A DNA stretch of 60,291 nt, the filler included, from Sluysia triapertura (lineage: Eukaryota), in NCBI GenBank assembly GCA_046118255.1. It is 5 parts of 5 records of this genome, joined end to end, with 100 filler letters (N's around TTAATTAATTAA, not from the genome) between each part and the next. Parts side by side here need not be neighbours in the genome. Positions count along the whole stretch, not along the records: positions 1 to 11,762 come from JBJNIA010172699.1; 4 more parts are not named here. The stretch is one strand, 5' to 3'. The translations under genes and the position numbers were made by a program. Positions 76-60,241 of this stretch are shown one piece after another. Under the pieces are notes generated by a model, which was given only the letters and a program-made list of their open reading frames with translations, did no database searches and had not been told where the DNA came from. The stretch's first letter is position 1. Each line of letters begins with the position of its first letter.

Positions 76-2949
76 TTTTTACCTTATAACTATTAGTTAT
101 TGACTAATTGAAACAATTTATTTTTAATTTAAAATCAATTAAATAACGTATTATACGTTTTTTACTTCATTTGTTTTGTATTCCATTTCAAATAATGTCA
201 TAGATTAATAATAACAAAATTATGTTATTTTTATAATTTTTGAAATTCTAATCTTAAATTGTCTACAAATTATATAAAATATGCAATAAATGACTAAAAT
301 AAATTGTAAATTGCAATTATTTAAATCTAATTGATTTTTGTGGAAAATTAAACAAAAGTTTCTGAAACTGAGCTATCATTACAGTCAATAATATAGTTTC
401 TTTATTGAACATTTTTAAGCCTAAATAACGACGTATCGATATAAGTAATTTCCATCGGAGAAGAAATTGCTTCATTTAATTTCAAATATAGTTAGAAAGA
501 TACAAACAGTAATAGAGATAGAGTTAGAGATAGGAAAAGATAGAGTTAAATAGAGGTAGGTAGGTGAGTAGGTTCATAGCTAGGTAGATAGAATATACGC
601 CGATACAAATTTTTTTTAGAAAATTTTCTTAGAAAATAATTTATACATTAAAAAGCAAATTCATGGGCACCTGAAGGGATTAAAAAAATTTTTATGGCAG
701 GAAAAATTATACATAAGGACCGTTCAAATCTAACTAATGCTTTATTTAATAATGAAAATTTGTTCAATAACTTCATTTTTATGCATTTATTTTTTATTTA
801 ATTAAATATGGGCTATGAAATATATTGTTATAGATTAAAGACATTATTATTTTCAAATTGTATTTTATGATTTATTTCGAGTTTATGTTAAATCTATATA
901 TTATGAATATATGTAATTACGATAATTAACGATTTTTGATGATAAACTTATGGATTTATAAATTAACTTCATTTTGTTTAGAAATTTTCATGTTTCCTCA
1001 CAATCATTTATTTATTGGAATTTTAGTACATATTATAAAAAGTTTTGGTTTAATAGATAAGACAGGTTCAATATGAATTAATGGAATTCTACTTCGAGAA
1101 TAAGTCATATTTCGTAAAAATGATTGTTAATATTCATTTTGAAATAAAATTAATAATGATTATTGGTTATTCGATTAATGAAAGATACTATGTCACTTTA
1201 GAGTTTTCGTAAGCAAACAAACATTGACAGTCAAATTTATCAGTATTATTTCTTGATAAAACTCAGACTGATTCATATCTTGATAAAACCCCAAATTTCA
1301 GATTTAGAAAATGTTAAGCCGATATATTTTTTCATTTGGCTCTAAACAGTATAGTGCCTATCTTATATTTGTTGTTTTTTTCTATTATTTTTTAACCTAA
1401 CAATTATAATTTAAATCGAGTTCGTCTGCGGTATATGGTTTATTACGTATCCACAGAAAATTTCTACGTGAGACGTTTCCCTAATCTTGAAAATGCGGGT
1501 AAGAATTATATCTAATGAATTTTTTATTTAGTCATAGCGTCTTTTATTCTACGTCTTATATTATTACACTTAGTTTATGTTTAATTCTTTTACTAATAAT
1601 TAATTTAATTAAACTCTTTAAAATTAATGTCTCTTTTTTATTTATCTTTTTGATTACCTTTAATAACTAATTAAAGCAATACAAAATAGATTTATTAAAT
1701 AACTTAATACAAAAAATGATAAAATAAATATAAAAATAATCAATTAAACTGATAGAATTAACTTCTTATCGTTATCTTAAAAGATTTTATTAAGATTTTA
1801 ACCCAGGCTTTATACTTGTGCTTTGAAACAAGTTAATGATTTTACGTACGAAATTAATTCTAGATTTATTTAAGCAAACTTACAAATATTATTTTACTTT
1901 GTCACTTTGAATTATGATAATATTAATGTTCCCAAATATTCGATATCGGTTATATAGTGTTGCATACAAAGTCTATAACGGTGGTTCGGAGTAATGTGAC
2001 TAATCTACTTCTTTTGTTGAAATAATTCTTCTGGTAAAATCGATGAAATAACACTTCTTTATGATTTTAAAAACCTTTTTGTCGTTCTATTCATTCTGTT
2101 GATGTAATTTCTTCATAATTCAATAGTGAAAAATTTTTTAATTCTTTTATTATTTGGATTTTATTTGGTTTTTATTGAAACAATTTGTAGATTTTTATTA
2201 TCAGAGCAAATAATAATTACGTACTAAATCGTCAATAAAACATTTTATAATTTCTTTTTTATTTTCAACTTGAATTAAATTTTTTTGTACTGTTAATATT
2301 TACAAAATATAATATTTAGTAGAATTTATTGGAAATAATATTTACAAAAATTATCGTTTATCAGTAATAATATTTGCAACTAATAATTACACAAATTTGT
2401 CTAATATTTACATATTGTTATACAACAATCAGTTAGATCGAATTGTTTCACAAAACAAATTCAGATTAAAATTTAAATTTTCAAATGATCTTTTAAATAT
2501 ATGAAACAGAGATTGCCAATAAGTTGAAACACCTTCACGTAAAAAGTTCTGAAAATATATGGATATTTCGTGGTGTGCAATATTGGCAGTGATTGTTGCA
2601 TGTTAGATAATATTAACACCATTTGTTTTGATTCAGTAAGAACATGAACACAACAACCAATGGAATGGTGTCTGTGTAATGACTTGGTTCACAGTTAAGT
2701 TTAAATAAACACCGGTTCTTTATGATATGAAGCTTATGAATTGTAGATGTAAAAACAGAAAGAAAATATAAACGATCAATTTCCGTTCATTAAAGACTTG
2801 CGATTGAAATTCTTGTTTTGAATAATAAGCGCAAATACTGGAATGTAATATAATCAAAAATAAAAGAATGAACAATTTATTTAAAATAAATAAAGAAATT
2901 ATTACTAAAATAAGCGTAAATTATTTTAAAATTTTCATTGTAATTTCAG

Positions 2950-3328
2950 AAAACACCGCAAATGAATTGGAAATTTAAGTGATGCCTTGAAAATTACTCT
3001 TAATAATTAGACAATGCTACTAACTATAATAATAATAATGATCATTATTAATAAATAATGATAATTTTCATTGTAATTTCAGGGAACACCGTAAAAGAAA
3101 TAGCAGAGTTCAGTGATGTCGTGAAAATTACTCGTAATAATTATATTATGCTACTAACGATAATAATAATATTTTTCATTGCAATTTCAGAAAATGGAAT
3201 TTCACATGATGTCTACACAATTATCCATAAAAATTATGGAATGCTGATAGCGATAATAATAATAATTGTTACTATTATTATTATTATCATTGTCGTATCT
3301 TCAATCATTTTAGCTCATTTTATTCGAA
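2950..3328 (+). CDS. Fragment of a spliced single-pass membrane protein gene: 51-nt phase-1/1 exon (3083-3133), TM exon (3191-3328), dead duplicate exon (2950-2999)
   Basis: Three copies of the acceptor TTTTCATTG(T/C)AATTTCAG; donors GTAATA (3134) and GTAATT (3329); phases are consistent. TM segment MLIAIIIIIVTIIIIIIVVSSIILAHFI. No family recognised; may be a pseudogene. Confidence 0.45.
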
Positions 3329-4363
3329 GTAATTAGTTTTATTTTGTTATATTTTATTATATAAATATCTTTATTTAATGCAAAATTTTGAAGTTATATT
3401 ACAAAAATTAGATTTAGAATACTTTTAATTTTTTCTATAATACATATCAATACCCTGTCTTAAATTTTTATTAAACTTTAAAGCATTCATATACCAGTCG
3501 TTCTCCAATTATTTAAGAGTTTAAAAATGTGGCTCTAACTTATGTTCAACTTATAACAAATAGTACCTTATTTAAAGTTATTTCAAATATTTTAAATTTT
3601 TTTGATGTTCTATTTATAATTAATTTTTAATTTCATTCAAAATTTATTTGTAAAATGTCAAACTTGTTATTGATGTTTTATTTTATTTTTCATCCTACTG
3701 AATGTTTGTTTCTTTGTCAATATTTTGGAAGTTTAAAAATTTAATATGTAATATGCTATACTTAAACAAGTATTTATTTAGTGGATATAACATAATAGTA
3801 GATGTATATTCTCGCAAAATCACACACACATATCTCTTCTCGATTGAGGAATTTAATGGACGTGAGTACTTTATGTAATGTTTAATTTTAAATTGTTTCC
3901 AATATGTTTAAAGCTATTTCGTAAATGTAGATTCTAACTTCAGGTAAGGATAATAATTTAATAAATATCACTTAAGAAATATAATTAAATAGATTTATTA
4001 ATATGAAAAGTCGGAAAAATTAAAAAAATCATAATAAAAGAATTATTATCATTATTCTTATCAAATAAGTTGTCATATGCGTCATCTTCGTATTGGTTCA
4101 GTCATTAATTAATTTTGTATATAGTTCATTTTATTCGTATTATTCATTTTAGGAAATGATCGTAATTAAATCAAATACCGTATTTTTAGGCACATGAGAC
4201 AAATTTTATTTATTTAACTTATACCAAAATAAAGCTCATCATTAACCATTATTTTAATTTAAGTAATAATAATCTTTTTTCCGCATTCTTAAAGAAATTA
4301 GTGATACTTAAATCTTTCTTTTCAATATAATAAAAATTATTTTCTTTCAGTGATAATAATAAA

Positions 4364-4588
4364 TTAACCCCTTAACTCGCACACTCGAATTAACTCGAGC
4401 GATGTTATTTTGGCATGTTTAGTTAGAAAATATATCTAACCAACATATGCTGATATAATAAATATATTTTTCATTGTTTTTTTGTTTTTGAATTTTTTTT
4501 GTAAATATCACACTAAAATATAGTTTAGTAAATAATAAGCAATAGAAAAATGAGTTTTTTTGAAAAAAATTGAACGTTAAGGGATTAA
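4364..4588. mobile_element. piggyBac-like MITE (~217 bp) with TTAA TSD
   Basis: TTAA|CCCCTTAAC ... GTTAAGGGA|TTAA: short TIRs with one mismatch, TTAA on both sides. Confidence 0.55.
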
Positions 4589-7500
4589 GAATTATCCAAA
4601 TTGTATAGTTAAGATAAAGCTATCCGATGTATTGGTATACAATTATTCACCGAAATACTCTTTATTATTGTTTCTGTTACAGGAAATATGCCGAATACCG
4701 CTCCACAGATGGTGTTGCATCTACATTTTTTATTATTAATAATCCAAGTTTGAGTAGTCTTGAATTCTGATATTAAATGCATAAATGAATAGGTTGTGGC
4801 CGCAGAAAGGTCAGAGCAAATTAGAATTTACATAAACTAAAACCATGTTTAATTTATTAGAATAGCTGTTTATTATTCATAATCTTTTTCGATATAAATA
4901 AAACATTGCGCTACTTTTCATAATTTACTATTAATAATACATTGTTTTGTTTATCGTTTATTTCTAAAATATCGACTACGTGTACGATGTGTGTTTAAGT
5001 GGAAATTTCAGTTTCAAAGATTGTATTGATTCCAGAAATTGGCAAAGGCTTATTGGAAATCTATTGAACAATAAACATTTTTATGATTTTAAATGCTAAT
5101 AAATAGACCAAGTTCAAAAATATATATGATTAACAAGCAAATTGTGAAACATTGTCGACATTCTATTTACGAAATGAGAAATATATAATCTTAATAAATA
5201 TATCGTCGCCGAAATCCATAAATGTAAATGATTTATTAAGAGGAACATATTGTATCATTTAATTTCAACAAATTCCAACATTGTGTAATAGAAAATCTAT
5301 TGATATCTATTAATAATAATGCGTAATTATAAAATAGTCATAAATATATCGTTCCTTTATTAAATCCATTATTGATTTTTATCAGAGTGCATTATTGTTT
5401 TTTGAATTTGAATCTGGTGCATTATTAATTATTGTATTATTTAGTAATTATAATAAACATTTTTGAATTTTATTAATTATTATCAATTTTTATTAAATCA
5501 TTTCATTTTTGGACTTATTTTATTTGGAAATGTATTCTATAAATTAAAATTATTTTGAACTTTTATTAATTTTTGTTTAAATAATTAAATTTTTATTTGT
5601 TTAAATTAACCTTCAAGGTTAATGTGCAAAAAGATATAAATATTTACATATTTGACACTATTCATCATTCGATTTCAAGTTTATTTGTTTTACAATTTTT
5701 CATTTGGTATAATCGTTGGATAAGCAATTGACCGAAAAACATTTTTTCACATTAATCCGATTAATCTTTCTTCGTAAACGTTAGTTTATTTTATTTAAGG
5801 TAGGATATTGTTAAAATATCAGTGAAAAATTCACTTAAAATATTTTATTAATTAACATTTGTGATCGTGTAATAGATCACTGAAAAATAATTTCCAAACT
5901 CTTTATCATTCAGAATTACAGGAAGTAATTCTTGCAAAATATAGTATTATTATTATTTTATTATAACCATTGTATTCTACAATTTCTGCGTGTAATAAAT
6001 TCTTTTTAAGAGATAACATTGTTTTTGATATAGTTAAAATTAAAATCCTTAATCAAAAAATAATTGTAAAGAATCCTTATTATAGGATTGTGTAAAATAA
6101 CTCTTAAATTGATAAGACAAGACACAATAAGAATAACCTCCATACTTTTAAGATATATATAGTTAGAGAATTATTAAACTTTCAAGACTTTAGCTACCTT
6201 TTTCTTTACGTAAAATCCAACGGCTGTCCCTCGATGGTAAGTCCAGTACGTTGGTGAACTCACAGTTTTAAATAAACTTTTATTCTATTAACGTTTAACT
6301 TTAATTCTCACAGTATTCAATTTCTAGGTTCATTTATGAACGTGAATTTGTCTTAAATAATTAATTTCTAAATTATTCTTTAGCCTAATAAAATCTATAT
6401 TTTTCAAACTTAAACTGTGTTTGTATTTTTGAATGCTAATACAGATTAAAATTTAAAATAGTAGTGTAATTTCTTTTACCTGCCTGAACTTTACTTGATC
6501 TAATATTTTACTGTACAAAATATTTGTCAAAAATTTAAACAACTCATTTTATAATGCACATTGTTAAAAATTACTCTAATAAGAGTTTGTGAAAGTATCT
6601 CTTTTAACGTTCAGTTACATCTTTTATTATTATTATTATTAATTCGTTTTAATCAAATATTATTATAACAGTTTCCAATATTAATTCACCACTGAAATTG
6701 GATATAGTGTACGTTTCAATTTAAGAGATGTATGCTGATTGTTATAATTTCATTGTTAAAATAATTATTGAGATTGTCATTGTAATAATAATTATTTTTT
6801 TCATAATATAATATGAACATTTTTTTCTTAATCTATTTATTTTGGTGATTTCATAGCTAATTTCCATGAAATACTTAATTTTATTATGTATTATAGTTTT
6901 GATTATTATTCTTTTATATTTGTAAGTGCTTGTTAGTTAACGGTTTTCCGCATTTATTTGCTTTATTTCTTACTTTTACTTTTTATTTCGTTTAACTATT
7001 TTGTAAGTATTTTTTTCTTGTAAAATATTTTTCCATAAATTTTCAAAATATTTTATATTTATTTGTTGTTTAACAAGTTTTATTTAACTATTAATATTTA
7101 TTTATTTTTATTTATTTAATTATTAATATTTATTTTCAGTTTGTATTTATTATTTTAATAATATTTTAATTAATTTATTAATTAATTGAATTTCGTAATA
7201 AGTGTAATTGGATATTAAAATAGTAATAATAAAAATAATGATAAAAATAAATTAACAAATAATACCATTATAAAGAATAATGATATAAATTATAGTACTT
7301 CATACCTCTGCATGTTATAATTCTAATTAAAATGAATAATAATTAAATATAAAGCTTAATTTAGTTTTCGTGATAAAACTATATTATTATTAAATAAGTA
7401 TCAATTATTATAAGATTCAACAAATGCAGTAATTGATCAGAATAAATATCAATAATAATGTTTAATAAATTAATGTTAATAAAAAAACTGTATTAATTTA

Positions 7501-8161: not shown

Positions 8162-10528
8162 GTCGTGTTAGTGACTGGCTTAATTTGAAGCTCCCTGATG
8201 GCTATTTTGCAGATTTTGTTTATTTGAGTAATACACTAGATTTTTTGATTTAGCACATGATTACTTTCTTTGGATCCTCAACAGTTAGGGAAAACATCGT
8301 GTTAAAAATCGATTACATCTGAACATCTACTGCAAAAGTTGACTTTTGTATTAAATATAACTTTACAAATGCAAGCAAAATTTCATTGGTCAAAAAACTG
8401 TAAATGCAATTGACAAAAGCATGCTTAAACGGTAATTTTTAAATTCTGATTCAAACATTTCATTTATTCATTACTACATTTCTAAATTGAACAGCTTATG
8501 AAAATTACGAATATAATTATTAATTGTAGAAAAAGTTGGAATAATTGAATCTAAATTCAAATAAATGAACCTAAAAGATAATAAAAAATGGTATTAAAAA
8601 TATTAAAGAGAAGAAATATTTAGATTTAATGTTATCATTATATAGTTAAACTTGATGAAATAAGAACTTTAAAAAAGTTTTATTCAAAAAGAAAACAATT
8701 TAAAAAATAAAGCTAAAATTTAATTTCTAAGTTATATATAAGTAATAATATTACATATTTTACAATTTATTCCAAAATGTTAATTTACATTTATATTACT
8801 TTGATTTTTATTCAATCCCTATGTTCGTTATCAACCAGTAAATATAAATGCAACCTTTCCTTAAATTATTAATTACGGAATTATTCAATAAATTAAAACT
8901 TTCGAACCACATGTGTCAAAAGATACTTGTTTACATTTTAATTTGAAATTATTTTCTAAGTTTAATCATTTTTATCATTTCATGTTTTAACTTTTCGTAT
9001 AATAATTGTTGAATTTATTTAGTGGTATAATTTTACTTCAGCTCATCCTATACCTAAATATAAGTACTTAGTATGTGAATAGGTATACACAAAATCGTAG
9101 GAGAAATAGTGTTAATATAAATTAAAGTTTCTAATATCGTAAACTCTTTAACTTGTCTCAGTTTGTTAGATATAAAAATGCATTAAATTTTTTCAAGAAT
9201 ATTATAGGTTAAACTTTATTATTATTCAAATTCGTTAAACAAAATTATTTTCCAGATAAAATTACTTTAATGTAACAACTCTTATATGAAAATAACAACT
9301 TTTTAATTTTAATTTATTTACTGATTACATATGAAAGTCAAAGTTCGACTTGTCTTTGCTGTAACAAATGAAAAAGTTAAATTGTGATTTTTATTTTTTA
9401 AACCTGAATTTCTTTTTTAACTTCACTTAAATGAACAAATAGACTCTTAGTTAATCAAACTTTATTCATAACACAAATATAAATGATAACTAAATTATCT
9501 AATTTAATTAAAAAAGCTACACGTAATTTATAAAATGTTAAACTTATTATCTAATTTAAAAATTTTTCGAAATTATGTTTACTTTATTCGGAATATTACA
9601 CAATTACTACCAAAATTTAAATTTGAAACTTTCTGAACAAAAACAACCGCGAATGCTTATTCAGTAATCAAAATGTTAGTAATTCTTCACCAATGTTGAA
9701 TCAGAAATTCATAATCATGTATATTATATATATTACATACGTTGATAATCCTTGATTCAAACATTTATAAGTAAATTGTAAATTGTCAGTTGTCCAATGG
9801 AAAGCAATTATGTTTTAGCTAATATCTCTTTCACATTCACTTTTTCTATAATTAATTCTTATTCCAAGAGCCAATAATTTGATATTCACTAAATGCTTTC
9901 TAATATAGTTAGTACTTTGTAATATAATTCAGTAAGTACTTAACAATTTTTAATGGCCAATTTTATTTCATTATTTTTTTTGATTTTTAATTTTAGAAAA
10001 TCAATAAGGACATTATATAATCTAATAGAAATAACATTACGATTACAAAGGATATTATTTCTACTGTTAATTCTACGATATTCAATATGCACGTCTTGAG
10101 GTAAGGTCAATAATTATTTTAAACATTATAACTCCGAAATTGTTATTTTGGATATTCAAATAAGAAAGTGGTGAAGAACCTGTTAGGTAATACTTCTAAA
10201 TTTTTAAACAAGAAGAAGGTGATCACGTTCTTGAATTGGAATAAAGTCGTCTAAAAGTAAATTATTAAATCTAATATTTAATTTATATTTAACATGTAGA
10301 TAAAGTAACAAACATTTTATCAATTCATTTCATGTTATGAAACTCATGTTAACTTGAATTAATCTTAAAATACTAAACTCATTATTAACTACATTTTGAC
10401 ATAATAATTGCTAGAATATCTTCACTATTTAAATTTCGATTTATAAAATTCAATTTTATTAGGATCTTAACTATTATAGATATACATCATTCATCATCTT
10501 ATTATTAAAGTCAACATTGTTAAATCTA

Positions 10529-11719
10529 TTATTTATTTGGGTAAGGTTGCAAAAATGTTTCTTTTATGAAGGACTCTAGATACCATTTTTGGTATGATTG
10601 TGTTGGATGTTTTACAGAGTAATATAGAGTTTGCCTCAGATTTAAGATTGATAACATTTTTTGATTTAATTTATGATCAGTTCGTAAAATATATGATATC
10701 AAATATTTAGTTTTCGAAGATAAAAGATTATAGCGTAATTCTGTGTTTAAGGTGTGTGTTAAGGTTGAGGGCGTCATCTTAATTTCAGTAAGGGAGCAAG
10801 AATATGTTAGTAATTTAAAGAGAAAATATATACATAAAGAACTGATTTCATGGTATTCAGATTTGAGATTTAATATTTTTAAGGTTAATTCTTTATTTTT
10901 TTGATTTGAGGTATTATTCAAAACTAATGTTAACATTTTATTTAAACTACGGTAATGGATATCACTATTAGTACAATGATTAATGTGTGCTTGCTTTCTC
11001 AAATTAATAACTTCCGAACATTCATCATTTATGAATTCGCTTCCAAATTTAAAATCACTGTTACTTATCGAGAAAATAATAATAAAGCCAACTTTAATTA
11101 AATAAGAAAGATGAAGATTTATTACACGTGATAAAAATTTATTTAAATTCATGACTTCATTGTGGTTTCTCCATCTGGCTATCCAGTGTTCAGGGATCCG
11201 AACTGTATTTATCTTATCTAAAAAATAATTATATAATCTACTAAACTGATAACTAACATAATTACTAAACAAATATAAACTAAATATCTTACGACTATTT
11301 TCAGAAACGTATACCGTGGTAGAAATAGCGTTATCCTTTGATCTTTCAAAGTCTTCATTAATAGAAATAAGAAAAACAAATCTGTTGATCACATACTTTA
11401 AAATTCTGTTTGCGGTATAGACCAATAGATAATTCCTTAGATTGTTAGATAATTGGTAAAACTTAATGTTTACATTAAAATCAAATGTAAACATCTTTGA
11501 CAACGTGTCGAGCGGAATTTTCCACATGAAATATTGTTCTTTCGCTTTAGTATCTTCCACGTTTCGTAATATTACTTTTCTCGTTATATTTTCTAAGGAA
11601 AGATAATTATCACTAGCTGTACAAGATAACAATTTGGAATGAGAAAATTTTGATGTTGGCTGATAATAAGATGGATGTGCACATATACTTTTCTCGTTAT
11701 ATTTTCTAAGGAAAGATAA
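10529..11719 (-). CDS. Intronless ORF of unknown family (367 aa in the track, frame open up to 11719; true 5' end lost at contig edge); probably from a mobile element or virus
   Basis: More than 1.1 kb without stops in highly AT-rich DNA where recognisable host exons are under 400 nt. Ends ...LQPYPNK*. Decayed paralogue at ~51.3-52.4 kb. Confidence 0.75.
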   Translation of the reverse strand, partial: LSFLRKYNEKSICAHPSYYQPTSKFSHSKLLSCTASDNYLSLENITRKVILRNVEDTKAKEQYFMWKIPLDTLSKMFTFDFNVNIKFYQLSNNLRNYLLVYTANRILKYVINRFVFLISINEDFERSKDNAISTTVYVSENSRKIFSLYLFSNYVSYQFSRLYNYFLDKINTVRIPEHWIARWRNHNEVMNLNKFLSRVINLHLSYLIKVGFIIIFSISNSDFKFGSEFINDECSEVINLRKQAHINHCTNSDIHYRSLNKMLTLVLNNTSNQKNKELTLKILNLKSEYHEISSLCIYFLFKLLTYSCSLTEIKMTPSTLTHTLNTELRYNLLSSKTKYLISYILRTDHKLNQKMLSILNLRQTLYYSVKHPTQSYQKWYLESFIKETFLQPYPNK

Positions 11720-11762
11720 TTATCACTAGCTGTACAAGATAACAATTTGGAATGAGAAAATT
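11573..11762. repeat. Exact direct duplication (~77 bp, period 113) at contig end
   Basis: TACTTTTCTCGTTATATTTTCTAAGG...GAGAAAATT occurs at 11573 and 11686. The period is not a multiple of 3 and it abuts the gap, so it is likely an assembly artefact. Confidence 0.8.
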
Positions 11763-11862
11763 NNNNNNNNNNNNNNNNNNNNNNNNNNNNNNNNNNNNNN
11801 NNNNNNTTAATTAATTAANNNNNNNNNNNNNNNNNNNNNNNNNNNNNNNNNNNNNNNNNNNN
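11763..11862. other. Artificial contig spacer N44-TTAATTAATTAA-N44
   Basis: Six-frame stop linker centred in Ns, identical at four positions. Confidence 0.97.
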
Positions 11863-12759
11863 ATTATGGCTATTGAGAAAATTGTATTTTAATAAAATTA
11901 GATTTGTAATTGTTGGGTTTAAATTTTAAGTTATTGGTGATACCACTACACTTGTAAAAAAGAATTAATTTAAATATGGATACAAGCTGCTCTGCGACAT
12001 ATTCTGTTATTGGTACCGAAAAATTACGAAGAGATTATTCTATAAACTGTGTGTTTGTTCATGATTATTAACCTTCTATTTATACAATTTTTATTTTCGA
12101 CATTTCGTATTGATATTTATTATATTGATTGATTTAAACAAATTGCAGTATTAAATTAAATTGATTTTATTTATTAAATATTGTTTTTTAATATTTTTTG
12201 GTAATTTTCTTTAACTAATGTTTAAATTTATTATAATATTCATAATATTTTTTAGAATAAAATAAAATAATAAATAATATAATAATATAATAAATAAATA
12301 GATATTTTTAAGTTCAAATAAAATAAAATAGTATAATAATTAATATTTACACAGTTTCATTATTTACAAATCACAAATTGTTCTTACTACCTTAACAAAT
12401 ACTTAACACTTATAATAAATAAATTTCAAAATAGAAATATCAAGTGAAATTTAATTATAACTTCTGTAAGATTACAAAATAAAAGCAAAATAAGAGTTTA
12501 AATTTAAAAGCTTTTTAGTATCGACAAAAATATAATTATAACTAAAACGTAATTTAAGAAACAGTTTAAGAATCTAAAAATAAAATTTTTTAAATAGTTA
12601 TTCCAAAGCAGCATTCAGTTTTTCCCAATAAAGAAAAATAAATGTCAAATATGAATTTATTCATCTTCGAAATATTTCATGTCTTCATAATAATGATCGT
12701 AATTATTATTTAATTGCATTTCCTGCTTTAAATTGGATGAAGCATCATGGAAATTTTTC

Positions 12760-13070
12760 CACAAACATCATGTTGTACCAAAACCAGCTGATGCAGATGA
12801 ATATTTTAAAGTTTATGTCTTTACTTCATTCCAAGACTCACCAACCTATGCATTAACTAAAGAATATCCTGGAGGTTTTGGATTGCCATTTTTATAGAAA
12901 CTAAATTTGTTTCACTCATTAATATGCAGAAATATTGAATCTTTTAATGAACGGAAAATTCCTCTATGTCCTGTTTGAAGATGTGGTGTTAATCCACCAG
13001 GTATATCAATCATCTCAATTATTCTTTTATGACAATGTTCTTTAACTTTTTGGTCTATATACACTTGCCT
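12760..13070 (-). mobile_element. Decayed pogo-family (DDE_1) transposase C-terminal fragment
   Basis: Minus-strand translation IDQKVKEHCHKRIIEMIDIPGGLTPHLQTGHRGIFRSLKD...NGNPKPPGYSLVNA*VGESWNEV fits the IPGGxTxxLQ and GNxxxP...WVxxxW motifs; contains stops. Confidence 0.8.
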
Positions 13071-13305
13071 TCACTAACATCAATCAAAGAAACATACGAT
13101 CAGTCCATTTTATAATTACCATAATGACATTATTTAAATAGTATTAAAAAACTTAATAAGTTATTTAAATAATGAATCTATTTCGCGATATACTTTATAT
13201 TAATATGATAATATTATCATTATATTAGAAGTAATGATAATAGTAGCAATATAATGATGTATGAATATAATTGAAAACATGTTACAATATTTGACTTTAG
13301 CCGAG

Positions 13306-29426: not shown

Positions 29427-29584
29427 TGTTGGGGTAAAAGGCCTAAAAAGTGCCAAGTATTATAATTGAATATATTAAAAATGAAATTGTTAGATGGGGC
29501 TGATAGCTCAGTGGTAGAGCATCGACTGCGCAGACGATTGTCCCAGGTTCGATCCCCGGTCAGTCCATTTTACGAAGTCTAACA
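29427..29584 (+). mobile_element. Short TG...CA solo-LTR-like element carrying a tRNA-like cassette (copy 1)
   Basis: TGTTGGGG..GGCCTAAAAAGTGCCA..TATAATTGAATATA..[tRNA-like]..GAAGTCTAACA; the same framework occurs at 49878-50008. Confidence 0.7.
29497..29567 (+). tRNA. tRNA-derived sequence or pseudo-tRNA (non-canonical anticodon arm)
   Basis: Acceptor stem GGGCTGA/TCAGTCC, D arm GCTC-AGTGGTA-GAGC (A box), T arm CCAGG-TTCGATC-CCCGG (B box), TTTT terminator. The anticodon arm does not form a 5-bp stem with a 7-nt loop. Confidence 0.7.
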
Positions 29585-34509: not shown

Positions 34510-35040
34510 TTATTTATTATTATTACTAAATAATATATTAATTTATATTGCGCTCATATCTACTGCAAAGTAAGTACTCAAAAACGCTTAAAATGAATCA
34601 TTCACTATAATATTTCTGAAACATAAAGAACTTTGCCTTTTTCTTAAATATTTCATAATCTTCCAGTAATTTGATATTCTCTGGTAACTGGTTATATATT
34701 TCGAAACATAAACGATATACAACCTATCACCTAGCTTGTTATCACTTTGGATTCTGTACAGATTATTATGCCTTAATGAAATAGGCATTGATTTCCAATT
34801 TTTTCATTATTTCTAAAAGATATACAGGACTTCCGTAATGTAAGCATTTGTAAATTATTGTCATGATTTTGAATTCAATTCTTGCTTTTATTGGCAACCA
34901 ATGTAATTCCTTAAGATATGGTGTTATATGAGATCGTCTTCCCACTTGGAGAATTAGTCTTCCTGCTTGATTAATTATTAATTGCAATTTTTTCACTTTT
35001 CTATATGAAATTGAGTACAATAAACCATTTTAAGATCTAA
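34510..35040 (-). mobile_element. L2/CR1-group LINE 3' end remnant
   Basis: LQLIINQAGRLI..RRSHITPYLKELHWLPIKARIEFKIMTIIYKCLH..P.YL is the typical ORF2 C-terminal region. The 3' end GAGTACTTACTTTGCAG..GAGCGCAATATAAA is followed by an AT-rich tail. Other copies at ~48.4 and ~58.4 kb. Confidence 0.9.
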
Positions 35041-39425: not shown

Positions 39426-39800
39426 TCAAGTATGACCACGATGAATACCAACTTTTTCAATGTTTTCATCGCGTAGCAATTCATATGTTGGATTTTCTAG
39501 AACATGGAAATAATCAAATTGTTCTGCTTTTTGCTTTTGATGATTTCCAAATCCAAGTTTATTATTCATTTTGTTACTGTTATTATTTACCATATCCTCA
39601 TCTTTGTCTAGCAACCGTTTCCATGAACGACCAAGACGATTCGTGTTAACCGTTTTGGTAACAGTATCAGAGTTTAGACTTCGTCGTTTTCGTTGATTGC
39701 GCAGCAACAACAGTACAAAAAGAATAACAATTATAAACATAAATAAAAACAAAACAAGGGTTACTGATAAAAAATATCTCGATTTTGTAAAACCGTTTCT
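39426..39800 (-). CDS. APP/APL-1-like gene, terminal exon: TM helix and cytoplasmic tail with ENPTY
   Basis: YFLSVTLVLFLFMFIIVILFVLLLL followed by basic RNQRKRR and ...HVLENPTYELL...GHT*. Acceptor TTAAG at ~39801 (exact site uncertain). Confidence 0.75.
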   Translation of the reverse strand, partial: RNGFTKSRYFLSVTLVLFLFMFIIVILFVLLLLRNQRKRRSLNSDTVTKTVNTNRLGRSWKRLLDKDEDMVNNNSNKMNNKLGFGNHQKQKAEQFDYFHVLENPTYELLRDENIEKVGIHRGHT

Positions 39801-39812
39801 CTTAATTTAAAA

Positions 39813-41899: not shown

Positions 41900-42925
41900 A
41901 TTTTGAGATTATCCGTGGATAATATTTAGAAAATGCATAATTGTTTAAATAAATACACATCTATTTATTTTAAGAAGTACAATTTTAATTTTATTGATTT
42001 GCCGGTATGTATTGTTTATATTTCTTTATTCTGAAAATACCTTATGATAATTAAAATTTTAATTAAAATTAAATTTTTTTTAATTTTAAATTATTTTAGA
42101 AAAATACCCTATTGCAATGTCAAATAATCGCAAAAGAGTCGTAAAAAACTTCAGTTAATTGAAATGAGTGAAAGGGGTAAATCCACATCGAAACTTTCGG
42201 AAGAATAGGAGTTTGTGCTCAAACAGTTCGCGATATAATTAAGCAAAAAAGAAAGTTGGAGGAGTTTACAAGAGATTATGATAGTAATGCAGGTCCTTCA
42301 ACTAGGAAAAGTTTGAAAATGTCATCATCTGAAGATTTATATATGCTTAAATGGTTTAATCAAAAACGAGCAGTAGGAATGCCAATTACAGGCTCTCTAA
42401 CTACACATAAAGCCGAATTCTTTTTATGATTCATTTGATTAAAAGACGAATTTAACCAAATGTAAGAAATGTCATGGTATCCTGAGCTTTCAATCCAAGG
42501 AGAAATGGATGGAATTTGATTCATCTGATCCAGGATTCCAGATACAGAATGACACGGATATTATTTCAAATCTGATTTCAAATCCAAATGAAAATGAAAG
42601 TGAGTCAGAAAGTGAGGTAGAAGATATTTACCAATCGTATTAGTCACTGACTTCTGTCGATACTTTACTAGAATATGTCAATCAGTGGAGCTTCGACTAT
42701 AACGATGTAATATCTTTAAGAAAAATTACAGATGATATTAAAAAGTCATTGATAAATTCACTTAAACAAACCAAAATTACCGATTCTTTAATACAGCATT
42801 GAATGTATTTTCATTGTTTTTGTATTATACTAGTATTTTTTATTATTTTGCGGATTATCCGTGTTTTTCAATTATCTGTGCCGACCTTCACCATCATTAG
42901 CCCGAATAATCGGGAGTTTACTTTA
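41900..42925 (+). mobile_element. Internally deleted Tigger/Jerky-type (pogo) DNA transposon
   Basis: Broken HTH_psq/CENP-B HTH from 42117: MSNNRKRVV..GKSTSKLSEE*..QTVRDIIKQKRKL..RKSLKMS..LKWFNQKRAVGMPITG. Right end CGGATTATCCG..GAATAATCGGGAGTTTACT-TA. Confidence 0.85.
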
Positions 42926-48252: not shown

Positions 48253-48384
48253 TGTAGAAATAATCCGCTTTACATTTTAAGTAAAATAAAACGTTATTGT
48301 TTAATATCGTTATTGTTTAATATTGTTATTGTTCTTTAAAAAAATAACAAATCTCAGGGATTAGGGCAAATTATGTTCAGTATT

Positions 48385-48675
48385 TATAATAATAATAATA
48401 TTAATAATAATTTATATTGCGCTCATATCTGCTGCAAAGTAAGTACTCAAAAGTGCTTAAAATAAATCATTCACCATAATATTTTTGAAATAGAAAGAAC
48501 TTTGCCTTTTTCTTAAATATTTCATAATCTTCCCTTGTAGCTGTTTGTATATTTTTGAAATATAAACGGTACATAACCTATAATCTAGCTTATTATCATT
48601 GTGGATTCTGTATAGATTCATCTTGGTTTCAAAATTTTTTATTATTTCTAATAGATATTCAGGACTTACATAATA
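48385..48675 (-). mobile_element. Second, 5'-truncated copy of the L2-like LINE 3' end
   Basis: Clear nucleotide match to 34540-34835 (TTATATTGCGCTCATATCT.CTGCAAAGTAAGTACTCAAAA..AAAGAACTTTGCCTTTTTCTTAAATATTTCATAATCTTCC). Confidence 0.9.
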
Positions 48676-48724
48676 TACACAACTCATTTCCATAGACGAT
48701 AATAATAATATTACTGATTTTTAG

Positions 48725-49522: not shown

Positions 49523-50450
49523 TGTTGGGATTGTCCAACTGTGGACAAGACGTGAGTAAGGAAGAAGTGGAGAATTAAAAAATATAGGATAAACTTGTAT
49601 AAAATGATGCTAAGGTATGATGAAACATTGGAGCAAGAATGATGAAGACAAAAACATCTATAGTCATTTTGGAATTGAAGAATACATTGGAGTTGCAAGA
49701 CCTTTGTAAGGTATTGAGACCATTAGAAGAGCTTAAGAATGATCAGGAGAACGTTTTTAAAGCATTGAAATACCTTGGACTTAATATCCTTGAGACTATT
49801 TGTTTGGTAATTTTGATACCTTCATTGGTGTTTCAGACCTTTAAGTGATAATCAGGAGATAAAATAATTGTTGCTAATGTTGAAACAGGCCTAAAAAGTG
49901 CCATTTCGGATAATGGTAGTATAATTGAATATAAAATAAAACGGCACAGCAGTAAAGTAAGATGGACCGGGTTTGAATCCCGGTCAGTTAATTTAATGAA
50001 GTCTAACACTAAATATCCACGATAAACTTGATGTATTAATAAAGAAGTAGAACGGTGAATGTAAAAATATCTAGAACATTCTGAGTGCCTTATGAAGTAC
50101 TAAACAACTTTAAAACCTTAATGAAACATTTAAATATAAAGTGAGATTAAGTCAAAAAATTAGTTAAAGTCTTAACTAATAAAAGTAAATTTTTTGTTAA
50201 TAATGTTTGAATGCGGAATGTAATTATGTATGTATTTGTTTTAAAAAAATCGTTTGATAAATATATGGTCTGACCGAGTTCATGCAAGAAAAGCCTTAAT
50301 ATTGAGCACAATTAAATGACAATTTATTTTTATTCATAGAATGCTGAATTTTTTATATTTAGAGTGATGAAAAAAATGTTTTGAGTATTGGATGATTGGT
50401 ATAGAAGGTAGAATCTAGAAATAAATTTGAAATATTTGTAAAATGGTTTG
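49523..50450 (+). repeat. Long LTR-like repeat, copy A
   Basis: Starts TGTTGGGATTGTCCAAC and aligns collinearly with the reverse complement of ~52800-53867 (for example TGTATTTGTTTTAAAAA..ATGGTCTGAC.GAGTTCATGCAAG.AA.CCTTAATA). Confidence 0.8.
49878..50008 (+). mobile_element. tRNA-cassette TG...CA element (copy 2) with 4-bp TSD CTAA
   Basis: CTAA|TGTTGAAACAGGCCTAAAAAGTGCCA...CCGGGTTTGAATCCCGGTCAGT...GAAGTCTAACA|CTAA. Absent from the homologous host repeat copy B. Confidence 0.75.
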
Positions 50451-50843
50451 TTTGAGAATGTAAACCTTTCCATTAGAACATTTGGTGTGAAATAACGAAG
50501 AATCAATTGAATTCTGAAAACTAAAGTTAAATTCATTATTTTTGTATGTGTTAAGAATATTAATGATTGTTAATTTAATGTGAGAAGTAATTTAGGTAAA
50601 AATATATCGAGTAGCGCAGAAAAAAATAATGATCGTTAATCAATTTTGTGTCTTGAACCTAATAATGTTTGATAGACCGTACCACACAATTGTCAAAACT
50701 GTTACTATCAATTTAATTCTTAAAGAAGGCTCAGTTGATTTGTAAAAGAGAATGTTTGTAAAACTAAATAATGATTGGAAAATGATAAAGTATAAAATGA
50801 AGTACTTAAAAAGTCAAAAAATAATATGCAGATTATATAAATT

Positions 50844-50920
50844 CGTTGGGATTAGTGAAGGATAAAGGTAGATATAAGGGTCAGGACTCATTACAACAGA
50901 ATATGGTGAATGTTATTAAA
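50844..50920 (+). repeat. Start of a related LTR-like repeat (extent beyond 50920 not determined)
   Basis: Matches 36342-36415 (-) and shares the (T/C)GTTGGGATT terminus with copies A and B. Confidence 0.65.
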
Positions 50921-51299
50921 GAATTAAGATAAGGAATTATGATGAATTATAATGGTAAAATAAGCACCTAAAATACTTGATTTAAAACAAAATAATGAGA
51001 AATATGAAGAAATAGCCATTTACAAGGCTTTATTTGTTAAAATATTAAAATACATATGTTAATTAACTTAATTAAAATTTGATTAATTTGATAACTCAAT
51101 AAAAATGTTTGTTCATGATATAATGGTATTAGATTTAGTTTATAATTATGATTTTAAAGATTGATTAGATGATATTGAAATGATAAGGGGAATGTTTGCC
51201 ACAAATACCATTATCTTTGGATAATTAAGATGTTAATGAGGTTGAAAATAGACAGAAATTGCTGTATAACTTTAGTCAGGAAAATTGGTCGGCTTATTA

Positions 51300-52420
51300 C
51301 CGACTAAAGGAGAATAGGCAGTTTTAATTTCTGTCTTGTTCAATTTCTAATTTTTACTTTCCCAAATCATCATAAAACAGATATATAAAAAGTTACATTT
51401 TTGCATAAAATTAGAAGGAAAAACGACAAAGACAAAAGGTAAGCAATAAAAGAAAACTTTTTAGCTATAGGAACGCTGCTTCAGTTCATCAGTGGATAAC
51501 GGTGAAACTGAAGTTATTTCTTTAGCAATCAGCTAAAATAAAATATGAACAAGGGTTAGTAACGTGTTCATTATTGATTACATTTTGTATTAATACGGAC
51601 GTCAACATTTATTTTAGATAAGTTGTGTCACCTCTGGTTGTGATTTTGTTATAAAAAATAATTTGTATTGTTGTTATAAAGAATGTTTTAGTTGTAATCT
51701 TGTGACAATATAGAGAATATATCGAGATTTTGAATTTATTTAGTTGTGGGTATAATGATTAAATTAAGACTTTTATTTACCGAAAATTTTAATTTTATTT
51801 CAAAATATCTATTATGAAATAAGGTCAATTCAAAATAATTGTGTATACATTTATTTATAAAACTAAATAACATCAAACATTTTAAATTAAATTGTTTATT
51901 GGATGTATGCTTCAAACCGAATTGGGGACATGCTGTCGCATTTCTGTCGTAGTTCTGAAACAAAAATCAAACGTATAAGTTCATTCCATCAAATTAAAAT
52001 TAAGATTTACCTTAAAATAGTCATTACCAATAAAACAGCTTTCCACATTTACCTTGTATAAACTCGATAATATACTAATAATTTGTTTACAACAAAGCTT
52101 GACCATCCTGGCTTTTGTCATTGCACCGTCGTCGTCTGTGTCGGTTTCAATATTCACTCTTACTAACGTTTGACCATAAAAGACAACTGTAATTTTAATA
52201 ATCAGAATCGTTTCCATGAGAAGTACTTAGGTAACCTAATGCTTCATACTTTAGAAACTGTGACATTACAACGTTGATCATTTTGCCGATTACTGAAGTT
52301 ACTCGACTAAGTTCTGAGAAATCCACTACTGGAGTACTAATATTTTCTCCGATGCTATGTTTGAATTCATTCATTATTATTTCGACCCATATTCTATGTT
52401 TTACATTTAGATGTAAGTTT
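51300..52420 (-). pseudogene. Decayed paralogue of the 10529-11719 ORF
   Basis: ILSSLYKVNVESCFIGNDYFKVNLNFNLME*TYTFDF aligns without gaps to ITRKVILRNVEDTKAKEQYFMWKIPLDTLSKMFTFDF (NVE-x7-YF-x13-TFDF). Stops and frameshifts present; boundaries approximate. Confidence 0.6.
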
Positions 52421-52799
52421 TGTTGAAATAAACAGTGATGTTGTTTTGTAATTTCTGATTATCTGATTAGCAAAAAAATTTAATAAAACATTTGACAGGG
52501 ATCTTCCCAAAACATTTATCAATTTATTTGAATTTATCAATATCTAGAAAAGTTAAAATTAAAATTACTTAAAATTGAAAATGTTTCAAATCAAAAATGA
52601 TAACCCCAAAAATCAAATTTATTTATTAATAACTTTAAAACTATTATGATTTCTTATTATTACAAAATTACTATTATTAAGCCAACTAAATATTTTCCTT
52701 AAAAAACTTATTTATTTTATTTTATTTAAAATAATAAAATACCAAAAAGCATTACCATATCATAGATCTTCTCCTATTCGATCCCTGTGCAATTGTGTG

Positions 52800-53867
52800 A
52801 TTGTGTTGTAAAATTTTAAAATTTTTTATTTTATACTCTCTCATTATCCAATCAATCCCAAATCTCAAAATCAAACACTTTCTCACACAAATCATCAGAA
52901 CCTCTTTGAAAACACTCTGTCAAACTTCATTAGGTACAAAATTTGGTTTAATTTATCTATCTAGTAGTTGGATTTTAAAAGTAAACAAGTGTAGGAGGTC
53001 AAATTGTGCTCTTAAGATTTCAATGTAATTAAATCACTTTTATTAGTTCAGAGAATTTTTTATGAAGAAATCCCTTTCAAAATAGACTTAAATTAATTAA
53101 AATATTATTAGTTATATACATTCCATAATTAAAAATTAATTAAAATTTACTCAGTATTAAGGGTTTCCTTGCATGAACTCAGTCAGACCATAATTTCATC
53201 GAAAGTTCTTTTTAAAACAAATACATACACTTTTTCAAATTTAACATAGCATTCCACATTCAAAAGTTATTCAAAAAACGTACTTTTTCTTAATTAAGTT
53301 AATTAAGATTTTAATTAATTTAACTATTTTTAGACTTAATCTTATTTTAAGTTTTATTAAGGTCGTACAGTTATTTAGTAGTTAATAGGGCATTCAGGAG
53401 CCTCTAGATGTTTTCACCTTCACCTCTCTGATTCCTTTTACTATTTCTTCATGATACTAGATTTATTCTGAATACCAATAACAATGATTTAATTTCTAAA
53501 CTATTTTAGAGATTTTAAACACATTACAAGATTACTCGAAGGTCTTAGATGCTTATCAAGGTTTCAGGAATACTTAAAGCTTAATAAGTCTCAGGTGATC
53601 TCAAGGTTTACAAGATCAAAAGTACTCTAATGACTTCAAAAGGCTACCAAGTCCACTTCAAGCTTCTACAAGATCTCAGCACAAGGTCTTTGGAACTCGA
53701 AGGTATTCCTTAGCTATTAACATTATTATAGATTTTTTACTTTCATGATTCTTATTCCGACAATGTTTATAATGTTCAACCCATCATTTTGTATCAATTT
53801 TTCCTTTATTTTATAGTTCTACGAGTTTCTCACATATCCCCTAAACCACCGTTGGACAATCCCAACG
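52800..53867 (-). repeat. Long LTR-like repeat, copy B (inverted relative to A)
   Basis: On the minus strand it starts CGTTGGGATTGTCCAAC. Similarity to A is clear over 53150-53867 and weaker to ~52800. Confidence 0.8.
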
Positions 53868-55222: not shown

Positions 55223-55411
<189 letters not shown>

Positions 55412-55572
55412 TGAAAATAGTATTTAAAATGAGAAATTTTATGCTGGTTATAATTTGAAATCAAATCGCACAAACATTTAAAATTAAATATAATAATTAA
55501 TAATAGAACAAAGAATTTAATGTAAAATATTTTTGCATTTTTTAAATGAAGCTTTTTTATGAAATTGTAATA

Positions 55573-55765
55573 TTGATTTTTTGTAATTTTGTATTTTATC
55601 GTTTTTTTAAATTTAAATTATATATAAATCAATATTTTGAAAATTCTTAGCTTAGAATTGGTCATGTTGATTTTTTGTAATTTTATATTATTTTATCGTT
55701 TTTTAAAATTTAAATTATATATAAATCAATATTTTGAAAATTCTTAGCTTAGAATTGGTCATGTT
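55573..55765. repeat. Near-identical tandem duplication (~95 bp x2) in CDKL intron
   Basis: TTGATTTTTTGTAATTTT...CTTAGCTTAGAATTGGTCATG occurs twice with a few differences. Confidence 0.85.
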
Positions 55766-56079
55766 TTAATTTTACATATCATAACGAAAAAGTCTATTTA
55801 AAAATTTGGATCATTTTTTAAAATTCTAATTTTAATAACTTTAGAGCTATAGTTATGTTTTTGTAAATTTAAATTTCCATTATGTATCGCTCCAAAAGAA
55901 ACTTTATAAAATAGAAGTAGGAAAAATATTAAAATCTTTAAAACAATCTAAGAATTCAACGAAATTTCTCAAACATATACTAATAAATAGTTGCATAATA
56001 ATCTTTGTATAAAGAGAAATTGGAATTTTCCGAAATATTTATGTCTAATGAAGTATGAAAAATGAAAAATTCATATTCG

Positions 56080-56180
56080 AATTAGAGACCATGAAAGAAT
56101 ATCTGATTATATGGCAATATATTACTTCAAATTAGAGACCATGAAAGAATATCTGATTATATGGCAATATATTACTTCAA
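56080..56180. repeat. Exact tandem duplication (50 bp x2)
   Basis: ATTAGAGACCATGAAAGAATATCTGATTATATGGCAATATATTACTTCAA at 56081 and 56131. Confidence 0.9.
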
Positions 56181-58379
56181 AAACGAATAGTGTTTATTTG
56201 TTTCCTTCTATAGATCAAGATATTATTGAAATTCCTGATGCAATGAAAGAAACTTGTATTTCATAAAAACTAAGTTGTAAATTAAAGGTAAATATCGTAT
56301 TTATATTCGTCTACAGAATCTATCTGTCTAATTTGTTCATATCAAAATGAATAATTCTGAGCGATTATTCGAATTAAACAATTAGTAGCTGAAGAAGAAA
56401 AATAAAGCATAACAAAATTTAATTAAACGATTTAATTAAAGATTTAATTAAACTTCTCCAATTAAGAGAAGGTTTGAATCTTATGTTTAAATGTTTATGG
56501 AAGTGACGAAATTACTGGATATAATAAAGTTAATAAATATCTTAATTAAAAAATTATTGGATTCCAAATTATTATCAAAAGAAAAATTTTTAACAAAAAT
56601 GAATTCTAATTTAAATTTTTAAAAACATTCAATATTAATACCAAAACTAATTTAGAGTTGCGTAATTGTGCTAGTTATATGCAATATAATATAATAGTAC
56701 ATTGGGTTTGTCTTAAAATATAAAATATCATTTTGATTATTACGGTATCAAACTTACTGAATTTCTTATTAATAGTTATGCTTTTAAAATATGTAGTATA
56801 TTTTTATTTATTCTTGTTAAAAATATGATTTTAATGACATAATTTTAGATATAGAAGTAGAAGAATATTTGCTAGCAAATTTTTTAGAGAAAAACGTATC
56901 ATGTAGATAAAATAAAAATAAAGTTTAATTTTAGTGAACATTATAAGTTAAACTTTATCTTATAAAATGTTGAGGCACGTTTCGATAAAGTATTATCGTA
57001 TATTGTTAAAATAAAATGCGATAAAAAGATGGTCAAAATTAATTTAAACATTACAATATTGTTTCTCGGATTTAGAGGTAAAGGAAGGTTGAGAGTGTAT
57101 AAAAACATTTTAATGATCTTCTGAATTTTACCAATTCCATTACTTCTGCTGCTAAAGTAAGGTTAGAATTAACTTTTAAATATGTAATATCTCTAACATG
57201 TGAAGGCGAACTTGCTTTTACGAGATTAGTTCATTTGTTTTCAGCTTGGAAAAGAGAAGTCTATTTATGGCTAATGAGAAACCATAAATAATCGATAAAT
57301 AAAAATGAGAATTTTTCATTGTTGTCGTTTTTCAGATTTAGAATGTAAATTTTTACTGTTATCAGTAGCTTTGCCCCGCAAATTAATTTTTGTAGATAAA
57401 AATTAAACAATTCATTAACAATATAAATTCGAGATATCTAACAACAATAATGACAAATAAAATCAAGCAGAAATTTAATGAATTAAATAATGTGTTAATG
57501 TAGAAGCGATACTACAAAAAATCTTAAAATTAAAAATGATATACAAGACAATGTGGAAATAATAAATAAAATGATAAAAAGAAATGATACGCTTATAAAA
57601 TGTGGTATTCGCTATTTTATTAGGTTTCTTTACTCCTAGTATTATCATCGATTATTCGTCCTTGATAACAAATTTTTTATTAAACACACCGAATTTTAGT
57701 TTAATTAGAAATACAAAAAAACTATAGAAAATTATCAACAGAATTAAACAAATATTAACCTGAATTACTTATGTTTCATCAAAATGAAAACAAATATATC
57801 AAGAAGTAAATTAATAAAACTTTAAAAATAAAGTTACAAACCCTACTACAACTCTGACAAAACAAAACAATCACTGTCTTCTATATTTGTCATTTTTTCT
57901 AGTACCAAGCATTATTTTCAATATGATAAATTAAGAAAGAATTAATCACTTAATTAACTGAAAAATAAATTCATTATTCCATCATTTAATCCAATCTTTT
58001 TTTTCATGAAATTTATCAAGGTAAACATTTCCTTACTTAACTAAATATAATTTGGGTTCATCTGATTTTAACTTGAAATTCAGTTTTCCTAGAACTTTTA
58101 TAATTAGTAAATTTTGATTGTTTCTGATTCCCTTCATTTTTAATTCTTGTTTATTTTCAATAGGTGCATAAAAACACAACTAAGTTAATAAATTTACATA
58201 AATAAATTAGTACTTTAATATTTGGGATCATTAAAATACACAAACCAAACAAATTAGATATATCTTGCTAAATCTTCAAATATTTTAATTGTAATTTAGT
58301 TATTAACTATTTAAATCATATACTATTTAAATATACTATCAATATTTTTTAAACATTTTTTAATGTTTTACGTAGAAAG

Positions 58380-58510
58380 TGTTGCCTATTAATTTCAAAA
58401 ACGTTCTGAAAAGCAAGGGTAGAATTCAAAATCTTGACAATAATTTATATGACAATCCTGAATATCTCTTGGAAATAATAAAAAATTCGGAAATCAAAAT
58501 GAATACCTTT
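58380..58510 (+). mobile_element. Third fragment of the L2-like LINE
   Basis: AGAATTCAAAATCTTGACAATAATTTA and TCCTGAATATCTCTTGGAAATAATAAAAAATT match the reverse complements of the 34.8 kb and 48.6 kb copies. Confidence 0.65.
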
Positions 58511-59713: not shown

Positions 59714-59908
59714 CAATTGCGTCATGAAAACTTGGTTAGCTTAATCGATGTTTTCAAAAGACGTAAGAAATTGTTCCTGGTATTCGAATTCATTGATTAT
59801 ACTTTGCTGGATGATTTAGAAAACAATCCTGGAGGATTAGAAGACAAATATGCTAGACGGATATTATTTCAAGTACTACGTGGAATCGAATTTTGTCATA
59901 ATAACGAT
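59714..59908 (+). CDS. CDKL2: CDKL2-like kinase, second coding exon (gene continues beyond window)
   Basis: Acceptor TTTCCAG, donor GTAAGT, phase 0. QLRHENLVSLIDVFKRRKKLFLVFEFIDYTLLDDLENNPGGL..ILFQVLRGIEFCHNND. Confidence 0.93.
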
Positions 59909-60241
59909 GTAAGTGATGGTTTCTTACATTATTATTTATATTGTAAGAATGTAAATTTCTTAATTTTAAATAAAAATTTAAAAAAAATATTTTTTAATGA
60001 TAATCTTCAAAATTTATTTCATAAACAAAAATCTCAAAAAATTGAGCATTCTAAAATTAAGAAGAAAATACCTTTAAACACATCTAACTTAAGAAAAACT
60101 ATCGATTAAACGAAATCACAGTATGAATGAAAAATCATTATCTTAGTAATATAGAAATAAAAATGATTACTAAAAATGACTATATATGAAAACTAAATTC
60201 ATAATATGGATAAACCAATATTATAACAAAAAATTAACTAA

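Follow-up and report, generated by a model that had tools for sequence, protein, structure and literature searches.

A many-copy open frame in Sluysia triapertura, possibly one partly broken member of an expanded F-box/LRR-like host family

F-box proteins act as substrate adaptors of SCF ubiquitin ligases: the F-box sits on Skp1 and the LRR surface meets the targets. Lineage-specific expansions with many pseudogenes are documented for F-box genes in nematodes and for NLR genes in fish (PMC5041008, in sections of the paper), and the same sections give counts of 688 F-box genes for C. remanei and about 260 for C. elegans, with pseudogenes making up many of them. The giant Ty3/gypsy elements of planarians known as Burro are a different kind of multicopy system; portions of a review describe them as LTR-bounded gag-env-pol polyproteins with BIR, MATH, ankyrin and BCL2-like domains (PMC6431247). 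A third precedent is the F-box A2 group of Caenorhabditis, multicopy genes that have captured a Tc1/mariner HTH (PMC12062965, in excerpt). The open frame that we describe here, P0001, resembles the nematode F-box and FBXL-type families in having many copies, broken copies among them and no outside relatives found, and it shares with FBXL-type proteins an N-terminal F-box-like stretch followed by repeat-like sequence. Unlike FBXL-type proteins, P0001 gives no match to an F-box or LRR profile, and open codons precede its F-box-like stretch.

The explanation that we favour, with a probability of roughly 0.45, is that P0001 is one partly broken copy of a lineage-restricted, expanded, fast-evolving F-box/LRR-like host family, and we infer a host rather than an element origin for it. 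In working copies the N-terminal F-box-like stretch would bind Skp1, bringing the protein into a ubiquitin ligase of the Skp1-Cullin-F-box type, and a degenerate LRR solenoid would select proteins for degradation. Segmental or tandem duplication would add members to the family and frameshifts would remove them, a birth-and-death process of the kind described for nematode F-box and fish NLR families; the present copy would be one that has been cut short at the 3' end and whose 5' end may be disrupted. The LRR nature, the F-box nature and the Skp1 binding of the product are all predictions. If they are correct, an invertebrate lineage has seen one more independent expansion of fast-evolving ubiquitin-ligase adaptors or LRR sensors, in a family too diverged for any profile; its members would be candidate defence or quality-control genes, and the case would extend a known pattern in a way that should not surprise a specialist.

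The window, by which we mean the whole stretch of 60,291 nt that was analysed, consists of five contigs of about 12 kb from assembly GCA_046118255.1, with N-spacers at 11763, 23358, 36242 and 48153, and has a GC content of about 23%. P0001 lies on the first of these contigs and runs for 396 codons from stop to stop (Table 1). The open frame of more than 1.1 kb reported in a preliminary description of this DNA is real: the next longest frame in the window has 148 aa, the longest frame in 60 order-3 Markov simulations of the window averaged 108.5 aa with a maximum of 152 aa, and the probability of 396 open codons at the local composition is about 1.6e-15. The length of 367 aa first given for the protein is a count from a TTG at codon 30, and the first ATG, at codon 65 (11527), gives 332 aa. 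The frame was also called intronless, which is correct for one uninterrupted stretch of about 1.15 kb and excludes no upstream exons, the contig ending 44 nt upstream of the frame. Over the whole frame the codon periodicity is weak (p=0.13, a level reached by 98 of 425 random stretches). The idea that P0001 is the antisense shadow of a plus-strand gene was rejected, the plus frames being broken into pieces of 41-56 aa.

Table 1. Positions of P0001 and of the features in and around it, counted along the whole window.
Feature	Position	Strand	Basis
396-codon open frame P0001, core of a many-times-repeated unit	10529..11719	-	Frame length, simulations, contig depth
F-box-like stretch, codons 65-97	11429..11527	-	By eye and language-model clusters; profiles negative
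Degenerate LRR-like strand motifs, irregular spacing	10620..11212	-	Motif tests and language-model LRR clusters
53 open codons before the first Met, likely coding	11528..11685	-	GC pattern and gap-free relative
Contig-end copy of 11573-11649, exact over 77 nt and offset by 113 nt	11686..11762		Sequence self-comparison
Likely broken 3' continuation	9943..10563	-	All three minus frames hold stop-free pieces (26-57 aa)
31-nt patch between two joints of related contigs	10137..10167	-	Equals an 11-residue strict LRR core
AATAAA about 70 nt after the P0001 stop, possible poly(A) signal	10455..10460	-	Hexamer scan

Genome-wide evidence on the copies of P0001 comes from one public sequencing run, compared as contigs. 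The run contigs over the gene-free flanks show zero differences at a depth of 10.2-12.5 (four flank contigs), so the run behaves as genomic DNA, and it may come from the same sample as the window. Over six bins of the frame the summed contig depth is 432-1143, that is 38-100x the depth of the flanks; such a sum is not a copy number, and since short overlapping contigs inflate it we take it to mean tens of copies. The number of distinct contigs that differ at a single site in the frame reaches 20. Many related, diverged copies of P0001 are therefore present in the genome, and the high copy number proposed from a supposed paralogue at 52 kb is supported by these read data instead, the match at 52 kb being due to chance.

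Three diverged relatives inside the frame occur among the 8 run pieces listed of 4792. Two of them, with 58 and 34 differences (17-20% diverged), align with 0 gaps against expectations of 9.3 and 5.4 gap openings; the expectation rests on 38 openings per 238 mismatches in 8 pairs of repeats from the window, and the comparison is biased in that the listed pieces favour long ones. The third relative has 22 differences and a 1-nt gap. The 17 variants inside the frame (of the 40 listed among 303) comprise 5 synonymous and 12 replacing changes and 0 stops, where 4.7 synonymous changes and 1.0 stops are expected at random, and purifying selection on this copy is not seen among these listed variants; such a pattern is as compatible with a gene under relaxed or diversifying selection as with a young pseudogene or an inserted copy of an element. 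Weak codon periodicity and neutral-looking variants might likewise be expected if the frame were an exon of a single-copy host gene or had opened by chance in non-coding repeats, but that explanation is largely refuted, and in our estimate very improbable, given the frame-length probability (~1e-15), the depth of 38-100x with many distinct contigs and the gap-free relatives. At 13 of the 16 listed GC-changing sites between 10685 and 11637, a G or C in this copy stands against an A or T in most relatives (binomial p=0.02); across the whole compared region such changes are balanced, and the excess possibly reflects display bias.

Tens of copies, some of them collapsed into deep contigs (6 contigs with a combined depth of 616 at one site), are also what might be seen if P0001 were an accessory ORF, or cargo, belonging to a mobile element or an endogenous virus whose transposed copies mutate neutrally after insertion and whose enzymes lie upstream, past the contig end. 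The neutral look of the variants (5 of 17 synonymous) would suit such an origin, as would the single long exon of P0001, which contrasts with the short exons of the genes recognisable in this genome. Giant elements have ubiquitination-related accessory domains, as portions of PMC6431247 relate, and LRR and F-box are listed in excerpts of PMC12062965 among the domains most often fused to TE or viral domains. The contig itself, though, gives no positive support to the element or virus that the preliminary description had proposed. That description had seen no RT, integrase or capsid, and this is borne out: in 58 of the 59 frames of at least 40 aa on the contig, gag, protease, RT, RNase H, integrase, polB, capsid and transposase are all absent above the Pfam cut-offs. 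The sole TE-type match is to a Mos1 HTH (E=0.0099) on the opposite strand, 8 bits below the cut-off and at chance level for 45 frames. There is no LTR or TIR and no long direct repeat 3' of P0001. Other than P0001 the contig has no frame longer than 93 aa, and the roughly 10 kb downstream is gene-empty, unlike a gene-dense viral insert; no capsid, polB or packaging ATPase was found there. Searches of viral, metagenome and prokaryote contigs gave 1, 106 and 50 pattern matches, none of them confirmed as a relative, phages gave none, and PHROGs gave one weak match (E=0.048).

The depth profile downstream of the frame also bears on an element origin. In five successive 200-nt bins the depth is 9x, 18x, 7x, 3x and 1.6x that of single-copy DNA, the last value being reached by 9581-9779, so that the repeated unit tapers over about 600-800 nt and has no sharp end of the kind that an element would leave. 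This stepwise fall would fit coding DNA that stays alike as its flanks drift better than it would fit the end of an element. An origin as element or viral cargo is in our view unlikely, and it retains what probability it has because the contig ends so close to the frame and because LRR and F-box sequences often accompany TE-derived domains. Less likely still, in our view, is a more specific form of it: the cargo of an undescribed element or virus would be an F-box/LRR ubiquitin-ligase adaptor, carried to tens of sites and serving to break down silencing or defence proteins of the host, and the enzymes of the element or virus would lie just past the contig end. If the copies did prove to be the cargo of one element or virus, a selfish element would be supplying its own ubiquitin-ligase adaptor in an animal, and the finding would matter more.

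Burro, which had been put forward as a candidate, is like P0001 in its high copy number and, in the available portions of PMC6431247, in accessory domains that are tied to ubiquitination. Unlike Burro, the contig of P0001 shows no gag, env, pol, protease, RT, RNase H, integrase, BIR, MATH, ankyrin or BCL2-like sequence and no LTR 3' of the frame, and the terms 'F-box' and 'leucine-rich' are absent from the main text of that review (PMC6431247). The Caenorhabditis F-box A2 genes are comparable as multicopy genes of F-box type that are tied to transposons (PMC12062965, in excerpt). They differ in carrying their HTH in the gene: the coding frame of P0001 has none, the Mos1-HTH match being antisense, below the cut-off and within chance.

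The proposal of an abundant element had been drawn in part from a decayed paralogue said to lie at 51.3-52.4 kb of the window, on another contig. The motif on which that paralogy was built, NVE-x7-YF-x13-TFDF, is literally present, with 9 identities in 29 columns, and has a stop inside it. As a whole, the region scores against P0001 as shuffled sequence does (P=0.51): the alignment score is 40 in the proposed frame and at best 44 when all six frames are tried, as against 44.5 +/- 5.7 in 300 shuffled controls, and 34 of 52 other 1.1-kb stretches reach a score of at least 44. A tblastn search with P0001 returned the region at E=7.2 without composition correction and did not return it at E<=10 with the correction. 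The likeness is a chance one, and the 52-kb paralogue is ruled out by the shuffles, the other stretches and the tblastn search together; a 9-residue match between Leu/Asn/Phe-rich frames in AT-biased DNA can mimic paralogy by chance.

The long repeats near 52 kb, described before as LTR-like, are in fact inverted arms about 70% alike. They enclose a decayed, element-like unit of 4.3 kb (49524-53866; arms at 49524-50343 and 53119-53866, blastn E 7e-40 and 2e-9) that looks like a long-TIR (foldback-type) element and for which no family was found. GC skew flips between the arms, from strongly positive values over 49-52 kb to negative ones over 52-54 kb. Inside the unit, at 51984-52458, are broken minus-strand frames of 81 and 87 aa; the 81-aa piece has no Pfam or PHROG match of note, and 18 candidates among longer proteins included none at E<=0.1.

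The ends of P0001 are informative about the state of this copy. The preliminary description had the frame running into the contig end, but its 5' edge is set by stops that sit within the exact 77-nt duplicate, and the duplicate is out of frame because it is offset by 113 nt from the original. It is either an assembly artefact or a duplication specific to this copy. One diverged relative (record 7 of the run contigs) aligns without gaps to 11397-11687; the alignment ends at the junction of the duplicate, leaving the last 18 letters of the relative unaligned. The 53 codons that precede the first Met are gap-free in this relative, and their GC content by codon position is 0.34/0.38/0.17 (p=0.049). 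The duplicate-made edge, the gap-free relative and these coding-like codons together suggest that the true start of P0001 is missing from the frame and likely lies upstream or on another exon; acceptor-like sites near the 5' part of the frame end at 11617 and 11593. The frame had also been described as intact, and this is doubtful in view of an edge that arises from an out-of-frame duplication and of LRR-like pieces that lie past the stop in mixed frames.

Several of the stop-free pieces past the stop hold motifs like an LRR core, about 85-120 nt apart. Over 186 control windows the strict core averages 0.62 occurrences and a relaxed core 3.92; this region has 3 and 9, counts that 6 and 5 of the controls reach (P about 0.03). 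The test was chosen after looking at the region, and these values are to be read accordingly. The depth over the region is 7-18x that of single-copy DNA. Its GC content (21.5%) is like that of the background, a continuous reading would need 7 frame breaks, where controls need 8.3 on average and 135 of 354 of them no more than 7, and 11 pieces from it have no Pfam or NCBIfam match. Related contigs of the run have joints at 10015>10137 and 10167>10273, leaving the 31-nt patch of Table 1 between them; both joints probably belong to one contig, to judge from depths of 21.9 and 32.2 and side lengths of 29 and 31. We conclude with moderate confidence that this region would be the decayed tail of the P0001 gene. 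Small introns are not favoured as the source of its frame changes, since the pieces abut or overlap and there are only 2 acceptor-like sites. The AATAAA that follows the stop is one of 6 such hexamers in 9900-10560, the motif being common in AT-rich DNA here.

What P0001 might encode is suggested chiefly by two language-model searches, which count as one source. The named clusters that they rank first are F-box, FBXL15-type LRR, LRR_8 and FNIP, at scores of 0.85-0.87 that fall below the 0.9 mark, with about 100 of 256 features in common and a recognition value of 1658 that is under the mark of 2300; 8 of the 10 best neighbours share a family or clan, and the top three clusters overall are unnamed hypothetical proteins (0.91, 0.90, 0.89). 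We treat the F-box/LRR likeness as a lead only. By eye, codons 65-97 resemble the F-box pattern, and several stretches further along look like LRR strands. The claim that the protein is an orphan with no recognised domain agrees with our searches: the whole of P0001 has no match to any Pfam family at E<=1, the F-box and LRR families included, and four sub-fragments likewise gave no F-box or LRR match (the two N-terminal ones at E<=0.5). Against a profile made from six viral half-F-boxes, a small and biased reference set, P0001 reached -1.7 bits (P=0.69 by 1000 shuffles), a score matched by 287 of the 364 frames in the window. Pfam and this one small profile are the basis of the F-box test. Because the profile test failed, we do not file P0001 as a member of the F-box family and propose only that it most likely functions as one. 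Among the viral frames tested for comparison, 6 of 8 have the first half of an F-box only, below the cut-off, and one full F-box was found, which led to few or no further sequences; none of 3 records searched held LRR_6, and none of 4 virus records held Skp1. Of six LRR motif tests inside P0001, one reached P<0.05 (0.042).

Homologue and fold searches were negative within their range. A phmmer search over 1.84 billion protein representatives returned 1 match (E=3e-5), to a tandem-repeat protein over codons 19-52 only, which we judged spurious; a word-indexed search yielded 1286 candidates with lengths of 182-581 aa but no match at E<=1, and neither PDB sequences nor NCBIfam gave a match. The structural check that had been recommended was run, and single-sequence AlphaFold2 gave pLDDT values of 34.7 and 39.7 and produced no solenoid; Foldseek on one of these models, an unusable one, had a best E of 0.45. 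The literature searched, at abstract level and with most subscription papers outside its coverage, does not describe the family, which is no proof of novelty. The uniformly negative profile and fold tests, the unnamed status of the nearest language-model clusters and a composition of 13% Leu, 11% Ser and 10% Asn could also be those of an expanded, lineage-restricted family of some other, unrecognised kind, mostly helical, whose likeness to LRR and F-box proteins is a by-product of Leu/Ile/Asn-rich, AT-biased sequence. We think this unlikely, since the named neighbours agree with one another on F-box/LRR and since the enrichment of LRR cores downstream and the kept patch both come from DNA that lay outside the sequence given to the language-model search.

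Expanded NLR families have long exons. P0001 could be the 3' half of an NLR-type (NACHT-LRR) immune receptor in which helical domains are followed by ribonuclease-inhibitor-like repeats, with the NACHT ATPase encoded upstream of the contig end. The frame is open and likely coding upstream of its first Met, the downstream LRR cores are in places about 28-30 codons apart, and codons 25-40 are, by eye, faintly like the NLR winged-helix motif. As in the expanded NLR families of zebrafish, coral, sponge and sea urchin, copies number in the tens to hundreds and the LRR-like motifs are C-terminal; sections of PMC5041008 put invertebrate NLR families at tens or hundreds of copies. Unlike those families, P0001 shows neither a NACHT nor a flanking domain: the available sequence, which is cut off at the nearby contig end, has no Pfam match to NACHT, winged helix or HD2, there is no NLR cluster among the language-model neighbours listed, and there is no match among PDB sequences. 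We therefore hold an NLR origin to be improbable and prefer the F-box/LRR-like host family.

Apart from P0001, its contig holds several repeats. Two are very abundant in the run, with summed depths of about 129,000 at 6198-6396 and about 13,000-15,000 at 8785-9182, where unique DNA has about 11. At 4364-4588 a sequence with short inverted ends (12 of 13 bases alike), each starting TTAA, resembles a piggyBac-type miniature element by eye, and bases 1-75 contain a similar TTAA-bounded end with a short direct repeat. A degenerate 134-nt tandem repeat at 2930-3336 overlaps a hydrophobic open frame of 93 aa.

The other contigs of the window carry host exons within 15211-20075, 25838-27820, 39426-39806 and 55223-60109, with matches to a doublecortin domain (below the cut-off), ferroportin, a membrane-protein tail with a weak cadherin match and a protein kinase, the exons of the last being CDKL-like by eye. 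Transposon remnants are present as DDE_3 at 26691-26897 (E 1e-13) and CENP-B/Tc5 at 42181-42426 (below the cut-offs), and a repeat shared by two contigs (34511-35029 and 48381-48677) contains a frame that by eye looks like the end of a LINE RT and has no Pfam match. The short host exons and the transposase remnants make an animal the likely source of the DNA. An Rfam search gave a single tRNA-like match, on a contig other than that of P0001, at 29497-29567; it has no assignable anticodon and is possibly a SINE head or a pseudogene. Finally, a stretch of 29% GC at 12632-14144 contains a cluster of unexplained open frames with no Pfam or PHROG match of note, including minus-strand frames of 148 aa (13306-13752) and 87 aa (13881-14144).
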